This document shows, piece by piece, positions 2,669 to 62,663 of a DNA stretch of 64,000 bases. The stretch lies in the sequence record PQ338057.1, one strand, 5' to 3'. This stretch comes from a phage. The notes under the pieces were generated by a model. That model ran no database searches, was not told where the DNA came from, and was given only the letters and a program-made list of their open reading frames with translations. The translations under genes and the position numbers were made by a program. The stretch's first letter is position 1. Each line of letters begins with the position of its first letter.

Positions 2669-2698
2669 AGGCACCTCCCCCAATTTTTATGCCTGCAT

Positions 2699-3019
2699 TC
2701 AGGCTTTTTCTAGCGTACACAGCAATGGATGCTCATTCTCCCTCGCGTACTTGTTCACCATCGCCACTTTGGTTTCTGCAACCTCGGCGGTAAAGACTCC
2801 GCAAATGGCCTTCCCCTGGTAGTGAACAGCGAGCATCAATTGCGTTGCACGTTCTACATCATAAGAAAAGAATTTTTGTAACACGTCAATAACAAACTCC
2901 ATCGGAGTGTAATCATCATTGACTAATATCACTTTATACATAGATGGCGGTTTTAGCGCGTCGCGAACTTTTTCTTCCGCCAGTTGATCAAAGTCCAGCC
3001 AGTCGTTCGTTTTACCCAT
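2699..3019 (-). CDS. clpS: ClpS adaptor protein
   Basis: 106 aa, directly upstream of clpA on same strand. Confidence 0.95.
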
Positions 3020-3341
3020 TGTCAGTTATCATCTTCGGTTACGGTTATCGGCAGAACGCCCTGCCGCTGACAAGAGCTTATTTGCCTGACCAATCTACTC
3101 CACATGATAGATAACTATCATCTATCGTTGGCATCAGCGACATCTGTCACATTCCTGTCAATAGCGTTAACTGCTTCAAATTTTTGATTCATACCTGCCC
3201 CCTGTCCCCTGTCAAATGCTTGACGGCTCGCCCTAATTCTCTAAATTGTATTTCTAGAGTTGGCGAGGTTTTGAACAGCCCCCTCTCTGACCCCGGTTTA
3301 TTCCATCTTACTTGTATAAGATTTGCGAAGGATGTCGAAGC

Positions 3342-3566
3342 ATGGAAAAGGGTACTGTTAAGTGGTTCAACAATGCCAAAGGGTTTGGTTTCATCTGCCC
3401 TGAAGGCGGCGGCGAAGATATTTTCGCTCATTATTCCACCATTCAGATGGATGGTTACAGAACGCTAAAAGCTGGACAATCCGTTCAGTTTGATGTCCAC
3501 CAGGGGCCAAAAGGCAATCACGCCAGTGTTATTGTGCCCGTCGAAGTAGAAGCGGCAGTCGCATAG
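3342..3566 (+). CDS. cspD: Cold-shock-domain protein CspD
   Basis: 74 aa from MEKGTVKWFN; cold-shock domain; ORF track start is upstream of the likely real start. Confidence 0.93.
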   Translation: MEKGTVKWFNNAKGFGFICPEGGGEDIFAHYSTIQMDGYRTLKAGQSVQFDVHQGPKGNHASVIVPVEVEAAVA

Positions 3567-3602
3567 CTCTTCTGTCTCATTGTGTACATCCTAAAGGCAA
3601 AA

Positions 3603-3630
3603 TGCCAGCCCGATCGGCTGGCATTTTTAT
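3603..3630. terminator. Hairpin terminator between convergent cspD and macB
   Basis: tgccagcc/ggctggca stem flanked by A-run and T-run. Confidence 0.5.
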
Positions 3631-3638
3631 CTCAAAAA

Positions 3639-5585
3639 TTACTCTCGTGCCAGAGCATCTACTGGATCCAGTCGTGCCGCATTTCGTGCGGGTAACCAGC
3701 CAAATAAAATCCCGGTGACCGTCGAGCAGAGAAACGCCAGCAGCAGCGCCAACGGTGAAAAACCAATCTCCCAGCCGGGTAAGAAAAGCTGCAAGGTGAA
3801 AGCAATTAACAGTGACAGTGTTATTCCCAACGCGCCACCGACCAGGCAAACCAGTACGGCTTCGATCAGGAACTGTTGCAAAACATCGCTTGCTCGCGCA
3901 CCTACAGCCATGCGAATGCCAATTTCCCGCGTCCGCTCGGTCACTGACACCAGCATAATATTCATTACACCAATACCGCCCACCACCAGCGAAATCACCG
4001 CCACCAGCGTCAGAAACAGTTGTAAAGTACGTGTGGTCTTTTCAACAGTTTTCAAGACGCCGTCCATGTTCCAGGTAAAGAAATCCTTCTTTCCGTGGCG
4101 CAGTGAAAGTAAACGCGTGAGTTGCTGTTCCGCCTCGGCGCTGTCAAATCCTTCTTTCACCCTGACAGTAATGGAGTTAAGCCACGACTGGCCCATAACT
4201 CGCCCGGACATCGTGCTGTAAGGTAGCCAGACACGCAGCACTTTACTGCTACCAAACATCGACTGTTTTTCTTCCGCCACACCAATGACTCTGGCGGGCA
4301 TATTGCCGACCAGAATCACCTCGCCAACCACATCTGCTTTATGGGGGAAAAGCTGGCGGCGAGTATTACTGTCGAGAACCACGACCTGCGCACGACCGTT
4401 CAGCTGCTCCTGATTAAAGGTGTTCCCTTCACTGAAGGTCATGCCATAGACATTAAAATAATCGCCGCTCACGCCATTGGCACTGGCAGCAACATCAACA
4501 TTGTTATAACGCAGGCGCAGGTTTTGCGAGACGGCAGGTGTGGCTGAGGCGACCCACGGTTGTTTTTGGATGGCGATTAAGTCGTCGTACTTCAGCGCCT
4601 GTTGATATTGCGGATCGTCATCGCCAAAATCTTTCCCGGGATAGACATCAATAGTATTCGTACCAATAGAACGAATATCCGCCAGCACCATTTGTTTGGC
4701 GGCGTCACCCACCACGACAATGGAAACCACCGACGCAATACCGATAATAATCCCCAGCATGGTCAGTAAAGTACGCATTTTATTCGCTGCCAGCGCCCGC
4801 CATGCCATCGTCAGCGCCTCGTTAAAACCGCTGACAAACTGCCGCCAGCCAGACACCGTGTTGACAACAGGCTCCGTCCCGCCAGCAACATTCACTTTTT
4901 CAATGGCGGGAGGATTGCGCACAATTTCGCCGTCGCGAATTTCGATCACCCGCTCGGCCTGAGCAGCGACCTGCGGATCGTGGGTGACGATAATCACCGT
5001 ATGCCCGCGATCGCGCAGCTGATGCAGGATCGCCATCACCTCTTCGCCAGAATGGCTGTCCAGTGCGCCGGTTGGTTCATCGGCAAGAATTACCTGACCG
5101 CCGTTCATCAATGCCCGCGCGATGCTGACGCGCTGTTGCTGACCACCCGAAAGCTGTGCCGGATAATACTCTGTACGGTCTTCCAGCCCCAGCCGTTGCA
5201 GCAACTCCTGGGCGCGAAGCAGCCGCTGTTTCCGCTCAAGACCAGCATAGACGGCGGGAACTTCAACGTTCTGCTCGGCGGTTAAATGCGAAAGCAAATG
5301 GTAACGCTGGAAAATAAAGCCGAAATGCTCGCGGCGCAGTTGCGCCAGCGCATCGGCGTCCAGCGTGGCAACATCCTGACCGGCGACGCGATAGGTGCCG
5401 CTGGTGGCCTTATCCAGACAGCCGAGAATATTCATCAGGGTCGATTTACCGGAACCCGAAGCGCCAACAATCGCCACCATCTCACCAGCATAAATATCGA
5501 GGGTGATGCCCTTCAGCACCTCAACCTGCTCATCACCGGCAGGATAGCTGCGACGAATATCCTTTAATTCGAGCAAAGGCGTCAT
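3639..5585 (-). CDS. macB: Macrolide export ABC transporter ATPase/permease MacB
   Basis: 648 aa; N-terminal ABC domain ([17 protein letters not shown]) plus C-terminal permease. Confidence 0.95.
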
Positions 5586-37797: not shown

Positions 37798-37918
37798 AAC
37801 TGAAGTTGCCCTGAAAATGAAATTTTTTTGCACAACCGCAGAACTTTTCCGCAGGGCATCAGTCTTAATTAGTGCCACTGCTTTTCTTTGATGTCCCCAT
37901 TTTGTGGAGCCCATCAAC

Positions 37919-37961
37919 CCCGCCATTTCGGTTCAAGGTTGATGGGTTTTTTGTTGCCTGA
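37919..37961 (+). terminator. ybjL intrinsic terminator
   Basis: 10-bp stem cccatcaacc/ggttgatggg followed by T-run. Confidence 0.55.
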
Positions 37962-38032: not shown

Positions 38033-38284
38033 TCAAAGAGAGAGCGCCACCTGTCCTGATTTCATTGGATGCGGCTGAACCGGATTTGACTCTTTTGGCG
38101 TTGCAATCGAACGAACAAAAGTTTCATGAGTAACAAAAGTATGGCTGCAGTTAATGTTCTGGCACTGGTTGTAACGCTCTTTGGTCAATGAAGATACCTG
38201 AAAACTGCTGCGAGTATGGGCGGCACTTCCACACAGTGGGCAAATCATCATTTTTCGAGTTCTCCCCATTTTTGCTAAATTCAC
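38033..38284 (-). CDS. ogr: Ogr/Delta-type zinc-finger late-gene activator
   Basis: 83 aa; CPLCGSAAH...CQNINCSHTF four-Cys motif as in P2 Ogr. Confidence 0.85.
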   Translation of the reverse strand: MNLAKMGRTRKMMICPLCGSAAHTRSSFQVSSLTKERYNQCQNINCSHTFVTHETFVRSIATPKESNPVQPHPMKSGQVALSL

Positions 38285-38341
38285 AATAATGATACCGCAT
38301 TATTCCATTTTGAGAACTTAAAAGTTCTCCATTGCGAAGAA

Positions 38342-38710
38342 TCATTCCATTTCGAAATCATCAATCTTCACTTCAAGCTCCAGACTGGTCGTAAAACCGT
38401 TATCCGGGCTGACAGTATGCGTCAGGGTGGTAATAGTCCATTCCGCATCATCTATCGGCTGTTTAAAGCCACTGACTTTCACTGGCATTTCCGTGTAGAG
38501 ATCTGCCCGCCCTTCCGCCAGTTGTAGCGAGAATGACGCAACGCCGCGTTGCAGGCGTTCCCACTGCATTTTCGCCGCTCGTTCGGCGTTGCTCCGGTTG
38601 GCATAAGTGCGATTAAGTACCAGCACGTTTTCATCCGTACCCACCAGGTAATCGCCCTGCTTCGCTTCCGGCTCTTTCTTCTGCTTCTTAGTTCTGCGCT
38701 TACGCTTCAC
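38342..38710 (-). pseudogene. C-terminal remnant of P2 gpD-like late tail protein
   Basis: 122-aa ORF immediately upstream of ogr as in P2 (U-D-ogr); far shorter than gpD (~390 aa); fused to the invertase remnant. Confidence 0.55.
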
Positions 38711-38988
38711 CGTGGTGCTTTCTTTCTTCGCAGGTTCGCGGGTAACTCTTCTATCAGCGTAACAAGATGCCGCATACTGCGCCCCAACCTGTCCAGCTTC
38801 CAGACAACCAGCGTGTCTCCTGCCGATAGTGTCCTGAGCAGTTTTTTCAGCCCCGGTCTGTCGGACTTAGTGCCGCTGATTTTATCCTCAAAAATCCGCT
38901 CACATCCCGCGCAGTTCAGCGCACTACGTTGCAAATCGGTGTTCTGGTCATTTGTTGACACGCGTACATAGCCAATAAGCATGATCAT
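38707..38988 (-). pseudogene. Truncated Gin/Pin/Hin-family serine DNA invertase (N-terminal ~80 aa only)
   Basis: MLIGYVRVSTNDQNTDLQ...DTLVVWKLDRLGRS matches the invertase catalytic domain; C-terminal HTH domain absent. Confidence 0.75.
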
Positions 38989-39009
38989 CTCCTTGAATAA
39001 AAATCGGGG

Positions 39010-39552
39010 ATGATGCCAGTTAGTCGTAATCGCTGCATTTTCTTAAACGTTGGTTTGGGAGAAGACTCTGCATTACCTGTTGGGGTGCCTGTTCCGTGGC
39101 CTTCAGCCACTCCGCCTACAGGCTGGCTGAAATGCAATGGTGCAGCTTTTTCTGCTGAAGAATACCCGGAACTGGCAAAGGCTTATCCGACAAATAAATT
39201 GCCTGATTTACGTGGTGAGTTTATTCGTGGCTGGGATGATGGGCGTGGTATTGATGCTGGACGTGCCTTGCTAAGTCTTCAGAATGGAGGAGTGGAATCA
39301 CACACCCACCAGGGACAGCTCTTCAGAGTCAGTGATTATCGTACAAAAGAAATACCAGCATCAGAAGTTATGGGAAGAGGATATATTGCAAGCCTGACGC
39401 CGGGTGCTGATAGCCCACTTGATTTTGATGATTATTCTGTATCCTCTAATCCAAATGGATATTTTGTCGGGAATCAGAGAACAACAGCATATGGGGTAAA
39501 TGAAACCCGCCCACGGAATATTGCATTTAACTATATCGTGAGGGCTGCATAA
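39010..39552 (+). CDS. Alternative tail-fibre C-terminal cassette (promoterless) in invertible segment
   Basis: Opposite orientation to H; shares the GLG junction with H at the crossover repeat; followed by its own tfa gene. Confidence 0.7.
   Translation: MMPVSRNRCIFLNVGLGEDSALPVGVPVPWPSATPPTGWLKCNGAAFSAEEYPELAKAYPTNKLPDLRGEFIRGWDDGRGIDAGRALLSLQNGGVESHTHQGQLFRVSDYRTKEIPASEVMGRGYIASLTPGADSPLDFDDYSVSSNPNGYFVGNQRTTAYGVNETRPRNIAFNYIVRAA
39041..39064. repeat. gix/hix-like invertase crossover site (invertase-proximal)
   Basis: ttcttaaacgttggtttgggagaa; 13-bp core ttggtttgggaga is a perfect inverted copy of 41127-41139. Confidence 0.55.
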
Positions 39553-47888: not shown

Positions 47889-49655
47889 ATGAACACCACA
47901 CTGACACCCGCAGATCTCGATCCCCGTCGGCAGGCCATGCTGCTGTACTTTCAGGGATACCGCGTAGCCCGCATTGCTGAAATGCTGGGCGAGAAAGTTG
48001 CAACCGTTCACAGCTGGAAAAAACGCGACAAGTGGGGTGACTATGGGCCGCTGGATCAGATGCAGCTCACCACCGCCGCACGCTACTGCCAGCTCATTAT
48101 GAAGGAGCACAAAGAAGGGAAAGATTTCAAAGAGATTGACCTGCTGGCGCGCCAGTCGGAGCGCCATGCGCGGATCGGCAAGTTTAACAATGGCGGCAAC
48201 GAAGCCGACTTAAACCCTAACGTCGCCAACCGCAACAAAGGCCCGCGTCGTCAGCCGGAAAAGAACGTTTTCACCGATGAACAGATTGAGAAGCTGGAAG
48301 AAATCTTCCATTCCTCCATGTTCAACTACCAGCGCCACTGGTGGGAAGCCGGAAAAACCAACCGCATCCGCAACCTGCTGAAGTCACGCCAGATCGGCGC
48401 GACCTTCTATTTTGCCCGTGAAGCCCTGATTGACGCCCTGCTAACCGGGCGTAACCAGATTTTCCTTTCCGCCAGCAAGGCACAGGCCCACGTCTTTAAG
48501 CAGTACATCATCGACTTCGCCAAAGAAGTGGAGGTGGAGCTGAAAGGCGATCCGATAGTGCTTCCTAACGGGGCCACGCTGTACTTCCTCGGCACCAATG
48601 CCCGCACGGCCCAGAGTTACCACGGCAACCTGTATCTGGATGAATATTTCTGGATACCGAAATTCCAAGAGCTGCGCAAAGTGGCTTCCGGTATGGCTAT
48701 TCACAAAAAATGGCGACAAACCTATTTTTCCACGCCATCCAGCCTGACACACAGTGCTTATCCGTTCTGGTCCGGTGCGCTGTTCAACCGTGGGCGCAAC
48801 AAAGCCGACAAGGTGGACATCGACCTGTCCCACAGCAATCTGGCCCCCGGCCTGCTGTGCACAGACGGGCAATACCGCCAGATAGTCACCGTGGAAGATG
48901 CGGTGCGCGGCGGCTGTAACCTGTTCGACCTCGACCAGCTACGCATGGAGTACAGCCCGGACGAATACCAGAACCTGCTGATGTGCGAGTTCGTGGACGA
49001 TCTCGCGTCCGTGTTCCCGCTCAGCGAGCTGCAAGCGTGCATGGTGGACAGTTGGGAAATCTGGACCGACTTTCATGCACTGGCCCTGCGCCCGTTTGGC
49101 TGGCGCGAAGTGTGGATCGGTTATGACCCGGCAAAAGGTACGCAGAACGGCGACAGTGCCGGATGCGTGGTGGTGGCACCGCCAGCCGTGCCGGGTGGTA
49201 AGTTCCGCATTCTTGAGCGTCACCAGTGGCGCGGGATGGACTTCCGCGCCCAGGCTGACGCCATCAAAAAACTGACCGAGCAGTACAACGTGACCTACAT
49301 CGGCATCGACTCGACAGGTGTCGGCCACGGGGTTTACGAGAACGTGAAAGCGTTTTTTCCAGCCGTCCGGGAGTTTGTCTACAACCCCAACGTTAAAAAC
49401 GCCCTGGTACTCAAGGCCTACGACATTATCAGTCACCGTCGTCTGGAGTTTGACGCCGGACACACCGACATAGCGCAGTCATTTATGGCAATCCGTCGCG
49501 CCACCACCGCCAGCGGCAACCGCCCAACCTATGAAGCCAGCCGCAGCGAAGAAGCCAGCCATGCCGATCTGGCCTGGGCAACAATGCACGCACTGTTTAA
49601 CGAACCGCTGCAGGGCGAGTCCGCCAATACCAGCAATATTGTGGAGATTTTTTGA
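47889..49655 (+). CDS. Terminase large (ATPase) subunit, P2 gpP-like
   Basis: 588 aa. Confidence 0.9.
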   Translation: MNTTLTPADLDPRRQAMLLYFQGYRVARIAEMLGEKVATVHSWKKRDKWGDYGPLDQMQLTTAARYCQLIMKEHKEGKDFKEIDLLARQSERHARIGKFNNGGNEADLNPNVANRNKGPRRQPEKNVFTDEQIEKLEEIFHSSMFNYQRHWWEAGKTNRIRNLLKSRQIGATFYFAREALIDALLTGRNQIFLSASKAQAHVFKQYIIDFAKEVEVELKGDPIVLPNGATLYFLGTNARTAQSYHGNLYLDEYFWIPKFQELRKVASGMAIHKKWRQTYFSTPSSLTHSAYPFWSGALFNRGRNKADKVDIDLSHSNLAPGLLCTDGQYRQIVTVEDAVRGGCNLFDLDQLRMEYSPDEYQNLLMCEFVDDLASVFPLSELQACMVDSWEIWTDFHALALRPFGWREVWIGYDPAKGTQNGDSAGCVVVAPPAVPGGKFRILERHQWRGMDFRAQADAIKKLTEQYNVTYIGIDSTGVGHGVYENVKAFFPAVREFVYNPNVKNALVLKAYDIISHRRLEFDAGHTDIAQSFMAIRRATTASGNRPTYEASRSEEASHADLAWATMHALFNEPLQGESANTSNIVEIF

Positions 49656-50680
49656 TGGGAAAGAGTAAGAAAAACCGCGCTGCGGCGACGAACCAGATCC
49701 AGCATAAAAACCAAACTTCAGCCGAAGCATTCAGCTTCGGTGATCCCGTTCCTGTTCTGGACCGCCGCGAATTACTGGACTATGTGGAATGCGTAAAGAT
49801 GGACCGCTGGTATGAGCCACCCGTAAGTTTTGACGGACTGGCGCGAACATTCCGCGCCGCCGTACACCACAGTTCACCGATTGCAGTAAAGTGCAACATT
49901 CTGACCAGCACCTACATCCCTCACCCGCTGCTCAGCCAGCAGGCGTTTTCACGTTTTGTGCAGGACTATCTGGTTTTTGGTAACGCCTACCTGGAGAAAC
50001 GCACGAACCGATTCGGTGAAGTTATCGCCCTTGAGCCTGCGCTGGCAAAATACACCCGACGCGGATTAGACCTAGATACCTACTGGTTTGTGCAATACGG
50101 CATGACCACGCAGCCGTATCAGTTCACGAAAGGCAGCATTTTTCATCTGATGGAACCGGACATCAACCAGGAGATCTACGGCCTGCCCGGCTATCTTTCT
50201 GCCATCCCATCCGCCCTGCTCAACGAGTCCGCCACGCTGTTCCGCCGAAAGTATTACATTAACGGTAGTCATGCAGGCTTCATCATGTACATGACCGATG
50301 CCGCGCAGAACCAGGAAGATGTGAACAACCTCCGCAATGCGATGAAAAGTGCCAAAGGCCCTGGCAACTTCCGCAACCTGTTTATGTACTCGCCTAATGG
50401 TAAAAAAGACGGACTTCAGATTATCCCGTTGTCAGAAGTCACAGCGAAGGATGAGTTTCTGAATATCAAGAACGTGAGCCGTGATGACATGATGGCGGCA
50501 CACCGCGTGCCGCCGCAAATGATGGGAATTATGCCTAATAATGTCGGGGGGTTTGGGGATGTGGAGAAGGCTAGCAAGGTATTCGTAAGAAACGAATTGA
50601 TGCCCCTGCAGAAACGATTGCAGGAACTAAATAACTGGTTGGACGAAGAAGTGCTCAATTTTTCAACCTATGAGCTTTAG
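49652..50680 (+). CDS. Portal protein, P2 gpQ-like
   Basis: 342 aa; overlaps P stop. Confidence 0.9.
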   Translation: MMGKSKKNRAAATNQIQHKNQTSAEAFSFGDPVPVLDRRELLDYVECVKMDRWYEPPVSFDGLARTFRAAVHHSSPIAVKCNILTSTYIPHPLLSQQAFSRFVQDYLVFGNAYLEKRTNRFGEVIALEPALAKYTRRGLDLDTYWFVQYGMTTQPYQFTKGSIFHLMEPDINQEIYGLPGYLSAIPSALLNESATLFRRKYYINGSHAGFIMYMTDAAQNQEDVNNLRNAMKSAKGPGNFRNLFMYSPNGKKDGLQIIPLSEVTAKDEFLNIKNVSRDDMMAAHRVPPQMMGIMPNNVGGFGDVEKASKVFVRNELMPLQKRLQELNNWLDEEVLNFSTYEL

Positions 50681-50688
50681 TTTTAAAA

Positions 50689-50716
50689 CGAAGACCATTA
50701 GGTCTTCGCTTTATTT
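50689..50716. terminator. Hairpin between convergent portal and retron RT genes
   Basis: cgaagacc-atta-ggtcttcg followed by ctttattt. Confidence 0.45.
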
Positions 50717-51660
50717 AAAGGGTTCTTTCCATATTTTTTTTCTAATTTGCTAATATAAGTTATTAATCTCCTATGGCTTTTTGAATCCACACTTAAAATA
50801 AATGACAACCATCCCCTAACGTGTTCTATCTCAGAAGACTTACCGCAAAATATATGATGTATCTTTGCTCTAATTTCTTTATATTTTTCTCTACCTATCC
50901 CAACTTTCTCTTGTGAAATAACTAAACCTGTAACTTTCCTCTGACTACGAGGCCCACTAATACAAGTTTTTTTTGAGTTAATAACCAATCCTTCACTTGG
51001 GATTATAGAAAATAAAAAATCACGTGCTTTAACAACCTTTTTCATAGACTGTGCAGATAAGGTGAGATCATCGGCATATCTCGTATATATCAAGCCCCGA
51101 CTACCTGCATAACCCTGAATACGATAATCAAGTTTAGAACATATTAGATTAGCTAATTTAGGTGATGATGGAGCACCTTGTGGTAGCAGATTTTTATAAC
51201 AACATATTTTTGTCAAAACTGAAGATATTAGTCGATTATAACCAAGAGAATGGAACACTCCAAAAACTTTGTTAGCAGTTAAACTTGGGAAAAAATCCTC
51301 CAAATCAATATTCAGTATAAAGTTTGCCCCAATATGCGGGGTAGCATTATTCAAAATAGATTGGTGCTTTTCAAATCCAATAGAAAAAGGAGATGACGAC
51401 AGTTTATCTAAAATGTTACGTAGAACCCATCCTTGTAAGGCTTTAAGTTCTCGAGAAGGTTGGTAAATGGTTCTCATTCTCTTCTCTGGGCCTTTCTTTT
51501 CTACAGTGTAGATCCTATAGCGAAAATCAGCTGTATAGATTAACAACCGAAGTGTTTCAACAGATATGCGAGTCGCCTTAGACATGTCATGCAAATTGTT
51601 CATGACAGGTAGGCCGAGATTTCTCAATCTAAAAGTGTTCAAATATTCAGCGGATTTCAT
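50698..51660 (-). CDS. ret: Retron-type reverse transcriptase
   Basis: 320 aa; motifs NATPH (NAxxH), YADD, VTG; AT-rich; ncRNA immediately upstream; from memory matches the Ec86/Eco1 RT. Confidence 0.95.
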   Translation of the reverse strand: MKSAEYLNTFRLRNLGLPVMNNLHDMSKATRISVETLRLLIYTADFRYRIYTVEKKGPEKRMRTIYQPSRELKALQGWVLRNILDKLSSSPFSIGFEKHQSILNNATPHIGANFILNIDLEDFFPSLTANKVFGVFHSLGYNRLISSVLTKICCYKNLLPQGAPSSPKLANLICSKLDYRIQGYAGSRGLIYTRYADDLTLSAQSMKKVVKARDFLFSIIPSEGLVINSKKTCISGPRSQRKVTGLVISQEKVGIGREKYKEIRAKIHHIFCGKSSEIEHVRGWLSFILSVDSKSHRRLITYISKLEKKYGKNPLNKAKT

Positions 51661-51666
51661 GAAAGT

Positions 51667-51836
51667 TGCGCACCCTTACGTCAGAAAAAACGGGTTTCCT
51701 GGTTGGCTCGGAGAGCATCAGGCGATGCTCTCCGTTCCAACAAGGAAAACAGACAGTAACTCAGATTCAATGCAGGATGCCGAAACAACATCCAGAGGTT
51801 GACCTTAATGATAAACCTCTCGCTAAGGGTGCGCAT
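51667..51836 (-). ncRNA. msr-msd: Retron msr-msd non-coding RNA
   Basis: 12-nt terminal inverted repeats tgcgcaccctta (51667-51678) and taagggtgcgca (51824-51835); long internal hairpin; ends 7 nt before the RT start. Confidence 0.85.
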
Positions 51837-52746
51837 ACGGAATCTTATCATAGTTAAATGTTGATTTTCTACGGTTTTCAAAATTCATAATCTCAAGCCG
51901 CAATCGGTCAAGTGTCTTTCTATCAAAGACGCTCCTAACATAGCTAGCCCCCAAAGCAGTGACCTGATAACCATCAGTCATTTGAAGTATTTTTCGTTCA
52001 TTTATTAGACGAGAAACAACGGATCTAACAATAATTTTAGATAAAACATCATCTTGCTTTATCGCTTTAAAAGCTAGTTCACACAGTGTGCGGTAGTTGA
52101 CACTATCCAGTAAATAGATACAAGGCAATAGAAACCGCTCTGCGTATAATATATTTCCAATATCTTTTGATACTTTATTTTCTTTCCTAACCTTCTTAAT
52201 AGATGCCATTAATTTTTTATATAATCGTAATTTTCTGGCAACATCAATAGATGAATCACACATTTCTTTTAGTTCATTTGAACTACAACGCAAAACAGAT
52301 TTTGAATTAAACTTACGCAACAGGCGAACAGGACCATAGTTAATAAAGCTACGTTTTGATTTAAATTTTGCATCTTGAATGCAAATCAACTTTCTCCTTA
52401 AGTTTTCATTATTAGAGAACGCACCAAGCTCTGTGAAAGACCCCGGACTTTCAGGAAATAAAATTATTACATCGACAGCTTCAGCCAGAATATTTTCTAA
52501 ACTTAAAAGGCTATGCTGCCCTTGACCAGCCAAAAGATCATCAAATAGATCTTCTGGATAAAATATATCAACATCACTGAACTTTGCTAAAAATTGTGAT
52601 AATTGATGACGCCAAGATTGATGATTAGCAACGTCACCACCACATAGAAAAATGGTTATTTTAATATTAGCTCCTCGATAGAAGCCTTTCTTTGTGAGAT
52701 GTCCTATAAGCTGTTGTTGCTGCTCATCGGTAAATTTTTTATTCAT
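51823..52746 (-). CDS. Retron effector (predicted nucleoside-deoxyribosyltransferase-like N-glycosidase with C-terminal DNA-binding region)
   Basis: 307 aa, AT-rich; first gene of the retron operon with its 3' end overlapping the msr start; Rossmann-like N-terminus KITIFLCGG. Confidence 0.75.
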   Translation of the reverse strand: MNKKFTDEQQQQLIGHLTKKGFYRGANIKITIFLCGGDVANHQSWRHQLSQFLAKFSDVDIFYPEDLFDDLLAGQGQHSLLSLENILAEAVDVIILFPESPGSFTELGAFSNNENLRRKLICIQDAKFKSKRSFINYGPVRLLRKFNSKSVLRCSSNELKEMCDSSIDVARKLRLYKKLMASIKKVRKENKVSKDIGNILYAERFLLPCIYLLDSVNYRTLCELAFKAIKQDDVLSKIIVRSVVSRLINERKILQMTDGYQVTALGASYVRSVFDRKTLDRLRLEIMNFENRRKSTFNYDKIPYAHP

Positions 52747-54331: not shown

Positions 54332-56752
54332 TTAATACAGGTTCCGCCACTTATCATCTTCCTTCAGACGCTGGTTCCGATAGAAGATACGCAGGCCTGC
54401 TCCTGACGGAATACTGCCGCCGCGAAGGAGCAAATCGACTTCTTTCTCGCTGCCATCAAATCCCCTGGACTTCAGTTCATAGACGAGCTGCTGTCGCTGA
54501 TGGTCTGTAATTCGCTGTTTGTAGTCTTTACGCCGTTTCGGTTTCACCTGGCGTAACCTTGCAGCCAGTTCCCGGCGCTCTTTTTTGCTCATACTGTGCA
54601 GGTAATTGTGCAACTCCTTGTCATTCATACGGGTAATATCCGTTCTGGAGTCCCCATCAGCTGATTTGTCTTTCCCTTGTTGGTTCAAATTTTCAGCAAG
54701 GGGACAGTTATTGCCACGAGTCCAAGGGGCGCAAGCGCCCTGGTCGGCTGCCGCCTCCTGAACGTCAACGGCCTTACGAACCATTTTCCACTTCACCGCA
54801 TGAGTGCAGATCTTGCCCTCTGCAATGGGTGACCAGATGCCATAAATACGAATACCGTGATCGCCATATGCGGTCGGTTCTTCGTTGATTTCATAAGCAG
54901 TTCTGATGAGGTGATATTTGCGGGGAACCAGTACGCCGCCCTGCTTCATGATGTAGGTGGCAAAACAACCAGCATCAGCAGCAGCCAGGATTGCATCAAG
55001 ACGCGGGTTATCCAGTACCGGCGCACCTGCTTTTTTGTCACCCTGTTGCCTTGCCGCCTGACCAGCCAGCAATCGCAGTTCACGGTAAGCCTGACGCCCC
55101 GGAATGCCAAAGAAGCGGAATTGCTGAACACGATGCAGAGACGCCCAGGCATTAACGTATTCAGCGTTATCACGCAGGGATTTACCCGTTTCCTTGCTGA
55201 TCTCCCCAGCCAGACCACGCCCGTCAATGTTCTTACTGATGTATTTCGCGATATAGCTTGTTGGCGTACCTTTGCGCGGGTTTATCAGCTCAGACTTAAA
55301 GCGTGGTCCCGTGTTATTGCCCAGCTCCTCGCGGTCTTCACGGATGGCAAACTTACGCAGTAATGCAGTGATGGCGCGGCGGTCTTTTTTACGCATGAAA
55401 CACATGAGATGCCAGTGCACAGTACCGTCATGATGCGGCTCAGCTACCCGCACGCCATACCAGCGCAACTCGGCTTTATGCATAGCCTTACGAAATGCAG
55501 CAAACATGCCGACCAGATAATCGCTACTTTGTCTTACCGTCGCGTTTGTCCAGGTCGGGTTTGGTCTGCCGTTATTGAGCGTGGAATGGAAACGCGACGG
55601 ACAGGTGATAGTGTAGAAAACGGCACAGTCACTGCGCATTTCCGCGATAAGCTCCAGACCTTTAACACAGGCCATCATCTCATTGCGGCGATGCGCCGGG
55701 TTGCTGCTGCTGGCGTTTACCACATCTTCCATATCCAGCGTGTCGCCGTCTTCGTTCACCAGTTCATGAGAACGAAAAAACTCCAGCGACTTACGGCGCT
55801 GCTCACGTTTATGCATCACGGCTTCATAGCTGACATAGGGGGATGCTTTTTTGCTGACCAGGCAGACAGCACGCAACTGCTCTTCCCGCCATTCGCAACG
55901 CATCTTCCATAATTTCCGATACCACCAGTCGGCACACAACATACGCGCCAGCGAACCCGGGATGAGTTCATAGAGCACTGGTTTGCGGCGGTTTATTTTC
56001 CGACGAAGTTTCTCAAACGCAGGCGGGATAACATCCAGACGCAGGGTTTCCGCTGCCACCTTTTCCCATGTCTTGCGGATTTCTTCTGGCTTAACGTCAT
56101 CGGTGGCATACAAATCACCACAAGCGTCCTCAAGACACATGCTCATATGCGCTGCTACCAGGGTGGACAGGCGTTTCACCTGATCCTGGCTCATTTCAGG
56201 CAGGATCAGCAGACCCTCCAGCCCTTGATGGCTTGCCATAAAACGGAAAGAAACAGATAGCTGACTGTCACGTACACAATCCAGTCGCTCCAGACATGGC
56301 TTAATCGTCTCACGCAAATAGCGGGAATAAGCCTTTGGCCTGCCCAGGCTGCTGAAGTATTCAATACGTTGCATCAGCGGCTTGCTGATATGGGAAGGCT
56401 GGGCGTTTACGTCCGCCAGAATGACCATGTCCGGATTAAAACGCTGCTGCTCATGCGCCAGCTTTGCCCGGCTAATGAGCTTATCCTGCTCCATTTCGCG
56501 CTGGACAGGATCACGGGATTCATTAAAGAAATAACGCTCCCAGACCTGCTCACTCAGTGCCTCGCGGCGCAGTTGTTCCTGCTCGTTATCGGCAGCGTAC
56601 AGAGTGATCAGGTTTGAAAGTGCAGACTCCGGCGCAACTTCCGCCGGGTCCAGATAAGGGTTAATGGCCTTTTTCGAGCCGTTCCATGAAAATGCTGCGG
56701 CGGCCTCGTTAAAGCCGCTGCAATAGTTCATATCGTCATGACTCATACACAC
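54332..56752 (-). CDS. Rolling-circle replication initiator (P2 gpA-like HUH endonuclease)
   Basis: 806 aa; HWH motif (TVHWHLM) and paired Tyr (SYIAKYISK). Confidence 0.88.
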
Positions 56753-58637: not shown

Positions 58638-59153
58638 TCACAGCAAACCGAATGAAGCACCGAGGCCAGTCACGGTATCAACTGCACTCGCCATCGCAGG
58701 GTTAGCCTGTAAACGGGCCTGCAATGAAACAGCAGCCAACGCCATCAGTCGTGTTACAGAGTTAATGCTGCTGATAGCATCACGACGACCTGCACTGGTT
58801 TTTACATCGCCAGATACCGCACCTGCAGCAACACGCCCGATCTCTGCGGTTGCACTCATGACGTAATGTGGCAGTTTCTCTTTTGCCACCTCATTAATCG
58901 GTACGCATGGCAGGCAGTGAATCTGAGCCAGAAAACCATCTACCAGCGTTGAATCTTCAGTCAGATCGGTAAGCAGCCAGATTTCTGGTGCGGTTAATAA
59001 ATGAGGTTGCGCTGGGTTCAACTTGTTCCGCAGAATCTGCACATTCATGCCAGCACGTTCTGCCAGTTGCACCAGGTTGTGGCGCAATGCGAATGCACGA
59101 CAGGCTTCATCAAAATGTGGATGTTTGGAAACTTGGTAATCAAACATGGTCAA
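58638..59153 (-). CDS. CII-like (186-type) HTH lysogeny-establishment activator; alternatively P2 B-like
   Basis: 171 aa; HTH-like [19 protein letters not shown]; second gene of the early operon after apl/cox. Confidence 0.55.
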
Positions 59154-59179
59154 TGCCTCTGATGTATTTCAGAATCGAA

Positions 59180-59401
59180 CTAATTAAGGTTTAGATTGCA
59201 TTCTGAAAGCGCATCAACGGTCATTGCTGCTATGTTGATCATCACTTTTTCGCGTTTTTTATCTTTGCGCAGTCGGTGACGGATAAGGCGTCCATCAGCC
59301 AACATGTCATTGATGGTATCGATGGATAGCCCTGTCAGCTCGCTATAGCGTTCAATAGTCACATGAGGGGTGGTAAGAGTGATTGAAATGTTAGGTCTCA
59401 T
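59180..59401 (-). CDS. Cox/Apl-like excisionase and switch regulator
   Basis: 73 aa, first gene divergent from the repressor. Confidence 0.6.
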
Positions 59402-59520
59402 GATGCAACATTCCTCGTTTAATGATGATTAATCAGGACGAATACGGATCGTTTGTATTTTGTGAACACCATAAACATACGATCGCACAGTGAAATCGTC
59501 AAGATAAAAGTTCACTTGGA
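59402..59520. promoter_or_regulatory. Divergent lysis-lysogeny switch promoter/operator region
   Basis: 119-bp AT-rich gap between the divergent apl-like and cI-like genes. Confidence 0.4.
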
Positions 59521-60096
59521 GTGACCATGAATTTGGAGAAAGGCGGACGAGGCGCTATAGAGCGCATGGTAGAAGCTTATGGATTCAAGACTCGACAGGC
59601 GTTGTGCGATCATTTAGGAATCTCTAAAAGTACACTCGCCACACGCTACATGCGTGACTCATTCCCAGCAGAATGGGTAATCCAGTGCGCCCTTGAAACA
59701 GGCACCTCGCTTAATTGGCTCACAACCGGGCATGGTTCAAAGCAAACTTCAGGTAATACAAATACTATGGAAGTTGCTAAATATGTATTATCTGATGGGG
59801 CCTTGTGTGAAGACGGTTTTTATATTTTCGATAGAGAATTTCTACCGTCGGCATTCAAGAATCTTTTTGTAATCACAGATAATAATTCTGAATTTATTTG
59901 TGATAAGGAATTTGATGATATACGTGATGGTAAATGGGTAATAAGTATTGATGGCGAAATAACGATCCGTGACATTACTCGTTTACCCGGTGGAAGAATC
60001 TTCGTCGAGGGTGGAAATAGAGCCTTCGAGTGCAAGATAGAAGATGTTGAAATAATTGGGAAAATTATAAGTTTAACAATTAAGTACGTTAGGTAA
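59521..60096 (+). CDS. Immunity repressor (186 CI-like size and layout)
   Basis: 191 aa; N-terminal HTH TRQALCDHLGISKSTLATRY; upstream of int. Confidence 0.7.
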   Translation: MTMNLEKGGRGAIERMVEAYGFKTRQALCDHLGISKSTLATRYMRDSFPAEWVIQCALETGTSLNWLTTGHGSKQTSGNTNTMEVAKYVLSDGALCEDGFYIFDREFLPSAFKNLFVITDNNSEFICDKEFDDIRDGKWVISIDGEITIRDITRLPGGRIFVEGGNRAFECKIEDVEIIGKIISLTIKYVR

Positions 60097-60111
60097 TACC
60101 GGGAGGAAACT

Positions 60112-60303
60112 ATGCTTGGTAAGGTATTTTTTGTGGTTTTATCATGCTCTTTGTTATTAAACCCACTAACTACCTATGCTAAAAATTATCCTTGTTCTGG
60201 GAAAAAGGGAGGTGTCTCTCACTGTACCTCCGATGGAAAGTTCGTTTGCAATGATGGAACTATTAGTAAATCAAAAAAAATCTGTACTAAAAACTCGCGA
60301 TAA
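60112..60303 (+). CDS. Small Cys-rich secreted or lipoprotein-like protein
   Basis: 63 aa; signal peptide [23 protein letters not shown]; 5 Cys in mature part; AT-rich. Confidence 0.45.
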
Positions 60304-60489
60304 ATTTTGCTTTTATATCTGCGCCTAATATAACAATGAGCCGCAGGCTAACCGCAAAAGTCACATACTCACATAGCAAAAAATAGCTAACTTCATTATG
60401 GCTTCAGTGAGATGTATGGTCGCAGGATTTCATACATTGACACTGGTTATACATACAGTAAAAATGCTCTCTACTGGAGGGCATTTTTT

Positions 60490-61506
60490 ATGGCAGTACG
60501 AAAACTCACCACAGGAAAATGGCTTTGCGAATGTTACCCCGCCGGACGTAGTGGACGTCGTGTGCGTAAACAATTCGCCACCAAAGGCGAAGCTCTGGCT
60601 TTTGAGCGTCACACGATGGAAGAAACCGAAGCAAAGCCCTGGCTGGGCGAATCAGTGGATCGTCGGACATTGAAAGACGTGATTGAGCTATGGTTCAAAC
60701 TACATGGTAAATCTCTGACAGCTGGGCAGCATGTCTATGACAAACTGCTGTTGATGGTTGACGCTCTGGGCAATCCCCTTGCAACTGATCTAACCTCTAA
60801 AATGTTTGCCCACTATCGAGATAAACGCCTGACAGGTGAGATCTACTTCAGCGAGAAATGGAAGAAAGGAGCAAGCCCGGTCACCATTAACCTGGAGCAA
60901 AGCTATCTAAGTAGTGTTTTTAGCGAACTATCCCGCCTGGGCGAATGGTCGTATCCGAACCCACTGGAGAACATGCGAAAATTCACCATCGCAGAAAAAG
61001 AGATGGCATGGCTTACCCATGAGCAGATTGTTGAACTGCTGGCTGATTGCAAACGTCAGGACCCAATTCTGGCACTGGTAGTCAAGATATGCCTAAGCAC
61101 AGGCGCACGCTGGCGAGAAGCAATAAATCTTACCCGCTCGCAAGTGACCAAATACCGAATTACCTTTGTAAGAACGAAGGGGAAGAAAAACAGAAGCATC
61201 CCTATCAGTAAAGAGCTTTACGAAGAGATCATGGCGCTTGATGGGTTCAATTTCTTTACAGACTGCTATTTTCAATTTTTATCCGTGATGGAAAAAACGT
61301 CTATCGTGCTCCCTCGCGGTCAACTGACACACGTTCTGCGCCATACGTTTGCGGCGCACTTCATGATGTCGGGTGGAAATATCCTTGCTTTGCAAAAAAT
61401 CCTCGGACATCACGATATAAAAATGACTATGCGCTATGCCCATTTAGCACCCGATCATCTTGAGACGGCTCTGAGATTCAACCCCCTCGCAACGCTAGAA
61501 GTGTGA
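60490..61506 (+). CDS. int: Tyrosine integrase (P2/186 Int-like)
   Basis: 338 aa from MAVRKLTTGKW; motifs R...HxxR...Y (LSTGARWREA, HVLRHTFAAH, MRYAHL). Confidence 0.92.
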   Translation: MAVRKLTTGKWLCECYPAGRSGRRVRKQFATKGEALAFERHTMEETEAKPWLGESVDRRTLKDVIELWFKLHGKSLTAGQHVYDKLLLMVDALGNPLATDLTSKMFAHYRDKRLTGEIYFSEKWKKGASPVTINLEQSYLSSVFSELSRLGEWSYPNPLENMRKFTIAEKEMAWLTHEQIVELLADCKRQDPILALVVKICLSTGARWREAINLTRSQVTKYRITFVRTKGKKNRSIPISKELYEEIMALDGFNFFTDCYFQFLSVMEKTSIVLPRGQLTHVLRHTFAAHFMMSGGNILALQKILGHHDIKMTMRYAHLAPDHLETALRFNPLATLEV

Positions 61507-61614
61507 TCTACTGGTGCAAAAATAACATCATCCCCCACTAGCTGAGTTAATTGCGTCAGAGTAAACTTTTATCAGTATATAAGTTCACTTTTATTCAATA
61601 TATTAAGAGATTAC

Positions 61615-61947
61615 ATGGCTATCATTACCGTAAAAAAACATACTGTCAAAAAAGCATTATCGATGGGATTTGAAAAAGTACTTGACGATCGTGGTTATGA
61701 TTCTGGGGCGTACTACGTTAAAGATGGCAAAAAGTGGATTTTTGATATTGTTGCGCTTAAGCAAAAACAAGGAGCAACCTCAGATGATGAGTTAAAAATC
61801 CTTGGGTATGATGTTGATACATATAATCTTGTAAAAAATGAATCTAATGAACTGGCTGAACTTTATCAAGATATTGCAGTTGAAGATGGTGAGCCAATGT
61901 ATCTAGAGGGTGGCGTGTACTTATATCCTGATGGTTCTATCCGTTAG
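61615..61947 (+). CDS. Hypothetical protein between int and the att repeat
   Basis: 110-aa AT-rich ORF. Confidence 0.5.
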   Translation: MAIITVKKHTVKKALSMGFEKVLDDRGYDSGAYYVKDGKKWIFDIVALKQKQGATSDDELKILGYDVDTYNLVKNESNELAELYQDIAVEDGEPMYLEGGVYLYPDGSIR

Positions 61948-61981
61948 CATGCAAATTGGCAGCACAACCGGGTTGTTCCAA

Positions 61982-62004
61982 ATGGCGACAAAGTGGCGGC
62001 AGCG
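61982..62004. repeat. Prophage att core repeat (int-proximal end)
   Basis: atggcgacaaagtggcggcagcg; 22/23 identical to 38010-38032. Confidence 0.6.
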
Positions 62005-62126
62005 GTTGGCATTACCCCGTAATAACCACCACTGACCACCAACCCAACTTATTGTTTTTACTATAACTTATTGTTTTCATTAACCCGTTTACATAAATGG
62101 GTTTTTTGTTATCTAAAACTTATCTA

Positions 62127-62663
62127 CTACCCTGCAACCCTCTCAACCATCCTCAAAATCTCCTCGCGCGATAGCGGCTTACGGTCGGTGACAAAATGCA
62201 GCGTCATCCCCTCAATAAACGCATCAAGCGCGCGGGCGGTTCCGGGTTCAAACCATTGTTCGAGCGTTTGCTGACTGCGCTGCATCCAGTTTTGCATTAC
62301 CGTTTTTAATAGCGGTTTTCGGCTAGCCAGCGCGTAGAGCTGGTACATCAGCTCCATGTTATCCGGCGTTGCAACCTGTGAGCTGTAGATCATATCGGTG
62401 ATAGCCTGGCATGCGCCCGGAGCATCACTAACATCGCTAAAAAATGCCTGATATTGCCGGGACATGATCTCAGTAAAACTGCTGAACGCCTCCAGTAACA
62501 ACTCATCAATTCCTGAAAAATAGTAGGTCATCGATCCCAACGGTACCCCGGCAAGGGTAGCAATTTTGCGGTGCGTAACAGCATGTATTCCGTAAAGTTT
62601 CACCGCCTCCAGCGTGGCCTGGATAATTTTTTCTCGCCGTTGCGGATCGTTAGCGCGACGCAT
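62127..62663 (-). CDS. rcdA: TetR-family transcriptional regulator RcdA (YbjK)
   Basis: 178 aa from [21 protein letters not shown]; N-terminal TetR HTH. Confidence 0.9.

Follow-up and report, generated by a model that had tools for sequence, protein, structure and literature searches.

What are the two small, AT-rich open reading frames that flank the integrase gene of this element, and what might they do for a lysogen? The window, i.e., the whole 64,000-nucleotide stretch of DNA analysed, is 100% identical between positions 59500 and 62100 to E. coli B (BL21/REL606), and the element is the defective P2/186-like prophage at rybB/rcdA of that strain. On the + strand the order is CI, ORF63, int, ORF110 and the att core:

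37877-37955, + strand: rybB sRNA gene at the other prophage end (Rfam RF00110, 105 bits)
37942-37955 and 62097-62110: att core, a 14-bp repeat, ATGGGTTTTTTGTT
59527-60096, + strand: CI, 186-type immunity repressor (Pfam Phage_CI_repr 2.8e-33, Phage_CI_C 8.7e-27; RefSeq start)
60112-60303, + strand: ORF63, YdcA-family mini-protein with predicted export (NF007463, PHROG 6000, alignment)
60112-60180, + strand: predicted signal peptide of ORF63
60181-60300, + strand: mature 40-residue basic domain of ORF63, with four cysteines
60490-61506, + strand: int, P2-type tyrosine integrase of 338 aa (Pfam Int_N, Phage_integrase)
61615-61947, + strand: ORF110, acidic protein (pI 4.7) of an unannotated gammaproteobacterial family

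The att core copy at 37942-37955 forms part of the rybB terminator. From att to att the prophage measures only ~24 kb, and the truncation of its D gene indicates that tail genes have been lost. ORF63 and ORF110 have GC contents of 0.349 and 0.363, whereas int has 0.479 and the whole prophage 0.485; both are indeed AT-rich relative to int, as the initial annotation had it. The C-terminal half of the CI gene (GC 0.342) is as AT-rich as ORF63, and the AT-rich block thus begins before ORF63. Being AT-rich, both small genes could be silenced.

An Rfam search of 59000-62300 returned no RNA family, and none of the defence models in PADLOC-DB 2.0 matched ORF63 or ORF110 at E values up to 0.1. Literature searches on the protein accessions, CP69 and P2 Hy dis gave nothing usable. 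A match to the 2876-aa P0181 was rejected, as this is a repeat autotransporter with an hhalign probability of 0.2%. Among the leads there was also a weak match to phrog_11801, ‘DNA methyltransferase’ (E 0.005).

ORF63 agrees in coordinates, leader features and cysteine count with its first description as a 63-residue protein with a signal peptide and five cysteines between repressor and int. In RefSeq the E. coli B protein is WP_001321204.1, named ‘YdcA family protein’ or hypothetical. It belongs to NCBIfam family NF007463, which it matches over residues 5-63 with 116.1 bits (cutoff 93), and to PHROG 6000 (4.6e-34); PF27300 is precomputed on its homologues. The leader (MLGK, a 12-residue hydrophobic core, then T-Y-A|K, whose Ala at -1 does not vary) is built like a substrate of signal peptidase I. 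Of the cysteines at residues 12, 28, 38, 46 and 58, Cys12 lies inside the leader in a column that is not conserved, while the remaining four are conserved and belong to the mature part. In a 19-member YdcA alignment A23, K32, G33, G34, C38, C46, D48 and G49 are invariant, and C28 and C58 nearly so.

Lipobox prediction, which had been suggested as a check, found no lipobox when the sequence was read by eye for [LVI][ASTVI][GAS]C preceded by hydrophobic residues free of charge, the Cys falling roughly between positions 15 and 35. Lipoprotein processing via V-L-S-C12 was rejected, since this Cys is too near the N-terminus, Lys4 falls within the stretch required to be uncharged, and relatives read L-I-C or F-V-C at that column. 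Matches to Pfam GULLO2-like_3rd (E 0.068) and NCBIfam lpg1681_fam (E 0.11) were below any threshold and were discarded. Among E. coli variants of ORF63 there are 11 synonymous differences and one non-synonymous difference; the resulting dN/dS of 0.02 marks ORF63 as more than a chance reading frame.

The top PDB sequence match of ORF63 is Legionella Dis2 (Lpg0823), with E 1.2e-5 when the leader is included and E 0.046 for the mature part without it. hhalign gives a probability of 74%, and pairwise BLASTP against the two Dis2 lobes gives E values of 5e-6 and 1e-5. Judged by these scores, the resemblance to the Dis2 lobes is borderline.

Membership of the YdcA family raises the question of whether ORF63 serves the host rather than the phage, as a prophage copy of a periplasmic YdcA function acting under acid, organic-acid or envelope stress. 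Besides exceeding the NF007463 cutoff, ORF63 also matches NF007462, which we take to be the model covering K-12 YdcA, with 68 bits, under that model's cutoff of 118. Enterobacterales, Pasteurellaceae, Moraxella and one Herbaspirillum protein all share a strongly conserved mature domain, a breadth that suggests a target common to Gram-negative envelopes rather than a phage-specific one. Deletion of ydcA renders E. coli W sensitive to 300 mM 3-hydroxypropionate, and the gene is reportedly acid-induced via YdcI (PMC7642389). This phenotype, however, comes from a single study, without a mechanism, and the prophage copy falls into a separate subfamily (NF007463, not NF007462). Its fixed coupling to the repressor and its PHROG membership are, moreover, equally consistent with a function selected by the phage. 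We thus hold a host-fitness role to be possible, though rather unlikely.

The coupling to the repressor is seen throughout the genomes compared. ORF63 lies directly after CI in 632 of 5426 complete E. coli genomes (~12%), in 80 of 80 IMG/VR contigs and at three inspected loci. In Haemophilus phage HP2 its homologue also stands directly after cI, overlapping the cI stop codon, and two exported ORFs are present between cI and int. A YdcA-like ORF occurs in Moraxella and Acinetobacter phages among late/tail genes, outside the lysogeny module. The slot between CI and int varies in content among prophages with shared int and att: Klebsiella phage 4LV2017 has a gene for a 349-aa hypothetical protein there, Escherichia phage 813R9 a true defence gene (a SNIPE homologue), and Atlantibacter one for an acyltransferase. 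By its position, and by the differing genes of related prophages, ORF63 occupies a cI-int accessory hotspot.

Whether the two small genes are read with the repressor was approached from the geometry of the locus, for which three further elements are relevant:

60101-60106, + strand: Shine-Dalgarno GGGAGG, 5 nt before the ORF63 ATG, read from the sequence
60437-60465, + strand: promoter-like site 5' of int (TTGACA, 17 nt, AAAAAT), a consensus match only
62082-62110, + strand: nine-bp hairpin with U-run, overlapping the att core (-9 kcal/mol, z -2.3)

The ORF63 ATG (60112) is 15 nt past the CI stop codon (60094-60096), and the att-core hairpin is the first terminator-like site predicted on the + strand. 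The four genes on one strand, the Shine-Dalgarno of ORF63 and the terminator-free stretch up to the hairpin make co-transcription of ORF63 and ORF110 with the repressor, as initially suggested, geometrically plausible. CI is presumed to be the first gene of this lysogenic operon, and in the prophage the hairpin presumably terminates a CI-ORF63-int-ORF110 transcript. For phage 186, the sequence record has the terminator of the lysogenic operon on the far side of attP. Homology to 4LV2017 and 813R9 begins near 60431-60432, just 5' of the promoter-like site. A promoter scan of the region found sites no more numerous than in shuffled sequence, and the spacer at 60300-60420 folds no better than shuffled sequence.

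On the other side of int, the gene arrangement is more intricate than it first appeared. The integrase is a short-tailed variant with the C-terminus ...NPLATLEV*; aligned with the integrases of P2, 186, HP2 and ML35, its homology stops at NPL, and the catalytic residues are conserved. A longer int start at 60412 was rejected, as the integrase alignment favours 60490. From the end of int up to the att core the following were delimited:

about 61496-61975, + strand: ORF110-carrying block of ~480 bp (GC 0.363; from the int alignment)
61976-62022, + strand: what is left of the C-terminal int coding tail (..PNGDKVAAAVGITP*), conserved though not translated here
62046-62082, + strand: AACTTATTGTTTT twice as a direct repeat within the att arm, spacing 19 bp, also conserved in phages 4LV2017 and 813R9

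ORF110 starts 108 nt past the int stop codon and ends 150 nt short of the att core, and so lies in the int-att hotspot. The description of a 110-aa ORF between int and the att repeat is therefore right as to position, but the gene is not simply downstream: its block interrupts what in relatives is the 3' end of int. Most relatives lack the block, and there int continues 14 codons further; Atlantibacter and Franconibacter have the identical junction between int and block. The 3' end of int in P2 overlaps with the P' arm and with Cox sites, and by analogy the tail remnant here is probably a piece of the attP arm, with the AACTTATTGTTTT repeats as candidate Int, IHF or Cox sites. Both int-att and int-primase hotspots of P2-like prophages have been published (NAR 2026, PMC13586616). 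The varying content of the CI-int slot and the absence of the ORF110 block from most relatives uphold the proposal that both ORFs are cargo. The interval from repressor to att had also been called compact in P2/186, which holds for P2 but not for 186, where Orf69 lies between int and attP within the lysogenic operon.

ORF110 is WP_000974872.1 (hypothetical) in RefSeq for E. coli B. It consists of an N-terminal domain of ~65 aa, an acidic linker and a C-terminal motif EDGEPMYLEGGVYLYPDGSIR, and has no match in Pfam or NCBIfam. AlphaFold (AF2) models from 15 and 47 sequences reached pLDDT values of 75.5 and 69.3 with a like order of secondary structure; Foldseek searches of the model against PDB and BFVD gave nothing below E 0.39. 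Relatives number 29 by single-sequence search, 82 by profile and 121 as cluster representatives, all named ‘hypothetical’. Across genera dN/dS is 0.14-0.22, which indicates that ORF110, too, is more than a chance reading frame. Partner domains of distant relatives (IF2_N, PIN_8, membrane-anchored forms) were set aside as uninformative; the PIN_8 relative has only the C-terminal motif in common with ORF110.

By sequence, the Salmonella protein STM3752 is a true homologue of ORF110, to which it is 52% identical over the full length (E 3e-29), and the shared YDVDTY and (E/S)(G/D)GMYLYPDGSIR motifs place the two in one family. Homologues of ORF110 lie beside int in rcdA prophages of three genera, and one is found 3' of a P2-type int of only 47% identity. 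In Providencia a homologue follows a lambdoid int and an HNH gene. Neighbours of the homologues include SNIPE, AbiE, RhuM, SymE and McrBC. The DNA 5' of the homologues is unconserved between contexts and thus gave no sign of a common promoter or cassette boundary.

The tight link to the 3' side of int, retained in three genera with an identical junction and again beside the 47% identical integrase, could mean that ORF110 is an accessory of integration or excision, e.g., a protein that modulates Int or the selection of the att site. In the same direction points Orf69 of phage 186, which sits in the equivalent place and has repeats weakly like the C-terminal motif of ORF110. That similarity is, however, limited to Y-L-x-G-G...PDG and is not significant: the best BLASTP alignment covers 24 residues of repeat motif with E 0.097, and homology between the two proteins was not established. 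A pI of 4.7 is also at odds with the basic character of typical directionality factors, and the Cox/Apl-type excisionase gene sits at the switch region. ORF110 is missing from most prophages that share this int and att: it is present in 71 genomes against 1135 that match the region, and in 3 of 80 viral contigs. Homologues are, furthermore, kept where int is degraded or absent, namely in SPI-3, the Providencia selC island and L115. An accessory role is therefore very improbable.

A different doubt is whether either gene is active at all, since one or both could be silent relics, unexpressed AT-rich DNA in a defective prophage. The ~24 kb size and truncated D gene of the prophage would suit such a state, as would the fact that no published expression data were found for either gene. 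DNA with a GC content of ~0.35, which is that of ORF63 and ORF110, is commonly silenced by H-NS. Against this stands the strong purifying selection on both genes. Hundreds of genomes and viral contigs carry an intact ORF63 at a constant distance from CI, and an ORF110 homologue of 89% identity is intact where the adjoining int has an internal deletion. Non-conservation in relatives, which had been raised as an objection to the cargo proposal, is not what we find, as both ORFs are conserved in related prophages. We consider it highly unlikely that they are relics.

Taken together, ORF63 and ORF110 are ordinary prophage passenger genes, in slots that are both already published P2 hotspots. More specifically, they are probably independent passengers, or ‘morons’, in two accessory slots of the lysogeny/integration module. 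From the geometry, ORF63 would be translated from the CI lysogenic transcript and, from its sequence features, would leave the cytoplasm through Sec, with signal peptidase I cutting behind Ala23. Its mature 40-residue basic domain is expected to be held by two disulfides and to act in the periplasm, close to the outer membrane's inner side, as suggested by the family pattern and the borderline likeness to Dis2. There it may give the lysogen an envelope-level trait; speculatively, this would most likely be the exclusion of incoming phage or foreign DNA, with stress tolerance as for chromosomal ydcA as the alternative. The late-gene placement in Moraxella and Acinetobacter phages and the tolerance link of chromosomal K-12 ydcA argue against a function specific to phage exclusion.

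ORF110, in turn, would be a cytoplasmic acidic protein of a family that appears repeatedly at the outermost int-att position of integrated elements. Its block seems to have replaced a dispensable C-terminal tail of int, leaving the catalytic core and the att-proximal arm untouched, and ORF110 would be the last gene of the operon, upstream of the att-core hairpin. Judged by the neighbours of its homologues, its role most likely lies in mobile-element conflict, i.e., defence or counter-defence.

A bolder version, which we regard as improbable, would make ORF63 one of a widespread class of repressor-coupled periplasmic mini-proteins, kin to the Dis2 lobes, that block the entry of foreign DNA, and ORF110/STM3752 a conflict gene of the int-att edge. 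Working from the periplasmic side of the outer membrane, the mini-proteins would in that case stop either the injection of phage DNA or conjugation.

The reading of both genes as independent passengers does not overturn current views of prophage organisation. BL21/REL606 are, however, among the most used bacteria, and every copy of their genome carries ORF63 and ORF110. A phenotype for ORF63 would annotate a very common prophage gene, found beside the repressor gene in ~12% of complete E. coli genomes as well as hundreds of viral contigs, and would be a first step towards the function of the chromosomal YdcA family and perhaps of Legionella Dis2. ORF110, for its part, illustrates cargo tolerated at the boundary of int and the attP arm at the price of the int C-terminal tail, a placement that bears on the workings of the recently described int-att hotspot.

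Among known systems, the lactococcal Sie2009 and Streptococcus thermophilus Ltp are superinfection-exclusion genes located between repressor and integrase. Their products are small, envelope-targeted and lysogen-expressed, and are membrane proteins or lipoproteins of Gram-positive phages. Their placement in the lysogeny module is that of ORF63, which is unrelated to them in sequence and has neither lipobox nor membrane anchor. Members of the YdcA family share with ORF63 an equal length, a cleavable leader and a conserved motif; K-12 ydcA is a chromosomal gene, while ORF63 is a paralogue carried by a prophage and tied to its CI gene. Dis2 consists of two disulfide-pinned lobes adjoining the outer membrane (PMC8486379). 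A likeness to ORF63 lies in the pattern CS.K.GG[IV]..C.S.G..VCN[ND]G..S, carried by both of its lobes; Dis2 and ORF63 are also both small, cysteine-rich and exported (by prediction for ORF63). Dis2, however, belongs to a secretion machine and has two lobes with ten cysteines, whereas ORF63 has one lobe and four cysteines in the mature part; beside it lie CI and int of a P2-like prophage, and no Dot/Icm-type or other type IV system.

The cI-int slot corresponds to the hotspot published for Vibrio K139-like phages (Rousset et al. 2022, PMC9122126). There the content is variable, whereas ORF63 is near-fixed with its CI type, in an E. coli lineage rather than in Vibrio phages. For ORF110, Orf69 of phage 186 offers a counterpart that is also small and has the identical slot and strand, but which, unlike ORF110, is a string of LAPDGTYVGG-like repeats. 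The closer parallel is STM3752, the first gene of SPI-3, about 320 bp from tRNA-SeC (selC). It belongs to a pathogenicity island and has no adjacent integrase, whereas ORF110 belongs to a P2-like prophage; in both cases, the gene is the outermost one at the attachment site.

The stretch from 59500 to 62100 is 100% identical in E. coli B (REL606, BL21 and derivatives), E. coli C and ATCC 11303. RefSeq gives the gene order there as CI repressor, 63-aa protein (labelled 'YdcA family protein' or hypothetical), integrase, 110-aa hypothetical protein, convergent rcdA (ybjK) and ybjJ. The repressor is of the 186 type (Pfam Phage_CI_repr + Phage_CI_C) and the integrase of the P2 type (Pfam Int_N + Phage_integrase). 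The element, which also encodes gpA, a portal protein, an Ogr-like gene and a truncated D gene, is a P2/186-like prophage. Its ends are marked by a 14-bp direct repeat, ATGGGTTTTTTGTT, at 37942–37955 and 62097–62110, and it is therefore only ~24 kb long and defective. Four genes lie at its right end:

59527–60096, + strand, CI repressor
60112–60303, + strand, ORF63, the 63-aa protein
60490–61506, + strand, integrase (int)
61615–61947, + strand, ORF110, the 110-aa protein

The left end falls within the rybB sRNA gene (37877–37955, + strand; Rfam RF00110, 105 bits). The 3′ half of the RybB terminator doubles as the 14-bp att core; this prophage family thus targets the 3′ end of an sRNA gene and rebuilds it upon insertion. 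At the right end, phage DNA and core make another hairpin (62082–62110). The left part of the prophage (window 38033–39552; translations judged by eye) is rearranged, which fits a defective ~24-kb element:

38033–38284, Ogr-like zinc-finger ORF
38342–38710, D-like tail gene, C-terminal 122 aa only
38707–38988, truncated invertase-like ORF, followed by a tail-fibre-like ORF

Flanked by the portal gene (49652–50680) and gpA (54332–56752), the minus strand (50698–52746) encodes a 320-aa reverse transcriptase (RVT_1) next to a protein of 307 aa that RefSeq names 'retron St85 family effector'. This position is the classical P2 GpA–GpQ defence hotspot, and the two genes presumably correspond to the retron already described in E. 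coli B. In the BL21(DE3) assembly CP081489, the cII and replication-endonuclease genes (2203–3648) are annotated as partial, which suggests that DNA has been lost internally. By comparison, the window encodes CII as a complete 171-aa ORF (58638–59153) along with a gpA of 806 aa; assemblies of B strains thus vary within this prophage. A CRISPR repeat at 153–180 (Rfam CRISPR-DR4, 50 bits) and a 60-bp-spaced direct repeat at 101–180 are unrelated to the two ORFs.

Both ORF63 and ORF110 are real genes. Among E. coli variants, ORF63 shows 11 synonymous versus 1 non-synonymous differences (dN/dS 0.02), and ORF110 has a dN/dS of 0.14–0.22 when E. coli, Atlantibacter and Providencia are compared. The initial annotation, which described them as AT-rich cargo and possible lysogenic-conversion genes, was correct in all essentials of its observation, and its interpretation is supported in part. 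The GC content is indeed low in ORF63 (0.349) and ORF110 (0.363) relative to int (0.479). Because the C-terminal half of CI (window 59761–60096) is equally AT-rich (GC 0.342), the low-GC block begins within CI, the N-terminal DNA-binding part of which has a GC content of 0.49. Similarity to Klebsiella phage 4LV2017 and Escherichia phage 813R9 starts only at ~60431. Taken with the GC pattern, this indicates that cox–CI–ORF63 behaves as a single immunity unit that can be exchanged separately from int–att.

A gap of 15 nt separates the CI stop from the ATG of ORF63, which is preceded at 5 nt by a GGGAGG site. The sole predicted terminator-like site on the + strand is the hairpin and U-run at 62082–62110, overlapping the att core. 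A promoter scan found 8 sites versus 7.2 expected, no excess, and a near-consensus promoter-like site lies directly upstream of int (60437–60465). Expression of both ORFs from the repressor transcript, as first proposed, is plausible and the best-supported reading of this gene geometry. On this reading, any cell producing CI would also produce ORF63 and export it to the periplasm, and ORF110 would occupy the distal end of the lysogenic operon. The phage 186 record describes a lysogenic operon that includes cI, int and Orf69, with a terminator beyond attP. The interval was said to be compact in P2 and 186; this holds for P2, but in 186 Orf69 separates int from attP. Orf69 (NC_001317, 658–909, − strand) consists of about six LAPDGTYVGG-like repeats and resembles ORF110 only at the C-terminal Y-L-x-G-G...PDG motif (E ~0.1).

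The leader of ORF63 has a positively charged MLGK start, a 12-residue hydrophobic core and a T-Y-A|K junction, with Ala at −1 invariant among 19 aligned family members; it has a signal-peptidase-I pattern. The signal peptide and five cysteines noted initially were confirmed: Cys12 lies in the leader and is not conserved, and the four in the mature part are. Lipoprotein attachment through V-L-S-C12 was considered and rejected, as the sequence breaks the lipobox rule and Cys12 varies. ORF63 matches the NCBIfam YdcA-family model NF007463 (116 bits, cutoff 93) and PHROG 6000 (4.6e-34), a phage protein family with no function assigned there; PF27300 is the precomputed Pfam entry on its homologues. 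The basic 40-residue mature part (pI 9.6) shows very strong conservation, including a shared 28-residue motif, from Enterobacterales to Haemophilus, Moraxella and one Herbaspirillum protein. A literature search for functional data on the family yielded only chromosomal ydcA, deletion of which renders E. coli W sensitive to 3-hydroxypropionate and which is reportedly acid-induced (PMC7642389).

Searched against the PDB, the ORF63-family profile returned one significant sequence, Legionella pneumophila Dis2 (Lpg0823; 7MUC chain AN), with E values of 1.2e-5 with the signal peptide and 0.046 for the mature part only. Both Dis2 lobes align to the profile, pairwise BLASTP against the two lobes gave E values of 5e-6 and 1e-5, and hhalign against Dis2 with orthologues from two Legionella genomes gave 74% probability. 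Dis2 is described as a pair of lobes alike in sequence and pinned by five disulfides, which adjoins the outer membrane on the Dot/Icm cap and has no structural relatives (PMC8486379); secretion does not require it (PMC12716638). On these alignments, remote homology between ORF63 and Dis2 is probable but unproven. The likeness supports a disulfide-stabilised periplasmic module and tells nothing direct about function.

The ORF63 block occurs in 632 of 5426 complete E. coli genomes (91–100% identity), with the order CI, ORF63, int (350 aa), rcdA in all three loci inspected. Relatives are encoded on 493 IMG/VR viral contigs; among the best 80 of these, the ORF follows CI at constant spacing in 80 and has int downstream in 78. 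Haemophilus phage HP2 (NC_003315), a distant member of the P2-like family Peduoviridae, carries between cI and int an unannotated 60-aa YdcA-like ORF (2920–3102), its ATG overlapping the cI stop codon; an exported 254-aa tRNA_anti-like (OB-fold) protein follows, then int. Phage S2 has the same unannotated match. In Moraxella and Acinetobacter phages the homologue lies among late genes instead, making the family a recurrent phage passenger that is not bound to one module.

ORF110 sits where the integrase tail would otherwise be encoded. The int gene of Klebsiella phage 4LV2017, Escherichia phage 813R9 and E. coli ML35 encodes 350 aa that end in ...ATLPSGDKVAAAVGITP before the stop. In the window, a ~480-bp block (~61496–61975) after ...ATL of int contributes E-V-stop, a 108-nt spacer and ORF110; past it the old tail-coding sequence resumes untranslated (61976–62022), and the att arm is next. 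Homology among P2, 186, HP2 and the compared integrases stops at the NPL motif with catalytic residues intact, so the change is limited to the variable tail. The difference may stem from an insertion here or from a deletion in the other lineage. An identical junction in prophages of Atlantibacter and Franconibacter, at the corresponding rcdA site, marks the block as an established module rather than an accident of strain B. The segment 61976–62096, which holds two AACTTATTGTTTT repeats, is conserved whether translated or not, and the P2 int gene shares its 3′ end with the P′ arm and Cox sites; from these two points we infer that it was retained as putative att-arm DNA.

ORF110 is acidic (pI 4.7) and matched nothing in Pfam, NCBIfam or PADLOC. 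Its family is small, with every member named 'hypothetical', and spans Enterobacterales, Pseudomonas and Pasteurellaceae. The protein has three parts:

N-terminal domain of ~65 residues, AL..G(Y/F)E...D..AY.G.Y(Y/F)IKDGKKWI..I..LK..LG...D.EL....YDVD.Y
variable acidic linker
C-terminal motif, (L)Y..(L)..EDGEP(V/M)YL(E/S)(G/D)G(M/V)YL.PDGSIR

Elsewhere the N-terminal domain is found by itself, in duplicate, or as the C-terminal part of longer proteins. The C-terminal motif appears to be a portable tail module; in a ~35-residue form, LY..L.VEDGEPVY(L/M)SDGMYL.PDGS(I/L), it ends otherwise unrelated proteins (P0208, P0182, P0193 and P0207 in our comparison), among them a 456-aa PIN_8 nuclease-domain protein. 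Two AlphaFold models agreed in secondary-structure order at moderate confidence (pLDDT 75.5 and 69.3), and neither matched anything in the PDB or BFVD.

The ORF110 block is present in 71 of the 5426 E. coli genomes, always at least 99% identical, and in 3 of the best 80 ORF63-bearing viral contigs; relatives occur on only 7 IMG/VR contigs overall. Its 90%-identity cluster covers >1000 contigs from E. coli, Klebsiella, Citrobacter, Enterobacter and Salmonella. Homologues are repeatedly found at the outermost position of integrated elements:

locus L117, 3′ of a P2-type int only 47% identical
locus L115, 3′ of an internally deleted int, beside a SNIPE homologue
Providencia rettgeri, after a lambdoid int and an HNH gene
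Salmonella SPI-3 edge, STM3752, ~320 bp from tRNA-SeC
Kluyvera and Providencia selC islands, beside SymE, Rap1a, AbiE and RhuM

The view of both genes as cargo is borne out, since slot contents differ among related prophages. Prophages sharing int and att carry in the CI–int slot a SNIPE-type protein (DUF4041 + T5orf172/MUG113, 558 aa; SNIPE is described in PMC13190303), at 1304–2980 in the sister prophage 813R9, where the phage record labels it 'chromosome segregation ATPase', at 1773–3401 in L115 and at 3429–5105 in a further locus, L013. A specialist would not find the presence of ORF63 and ORF110 surprising, and their occurrence in a common laboratory strain makes both easy to test.

Both slots are already described: a cI–int hotspot in P2-related Vibrio prophages by Rousset et al. 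(PMC9122126), and minor defence hotspots at int–att (3% of systems) and int–primase (8%) in a 2026 survey of thousands of P2-like prophages (PMC13586616). Against this background, the modest additions made here are the near-constant linkage of a secreted YdcA-family mini-protein with this CI type, its unannotated copy in HP2 included; the replacement of the int tail by the ORF110 block with the att arm spared; and the tendency of ORF110/STM3752 family members to sit at element edges, together with the possible kinship of the ORF63 family with Dis2.
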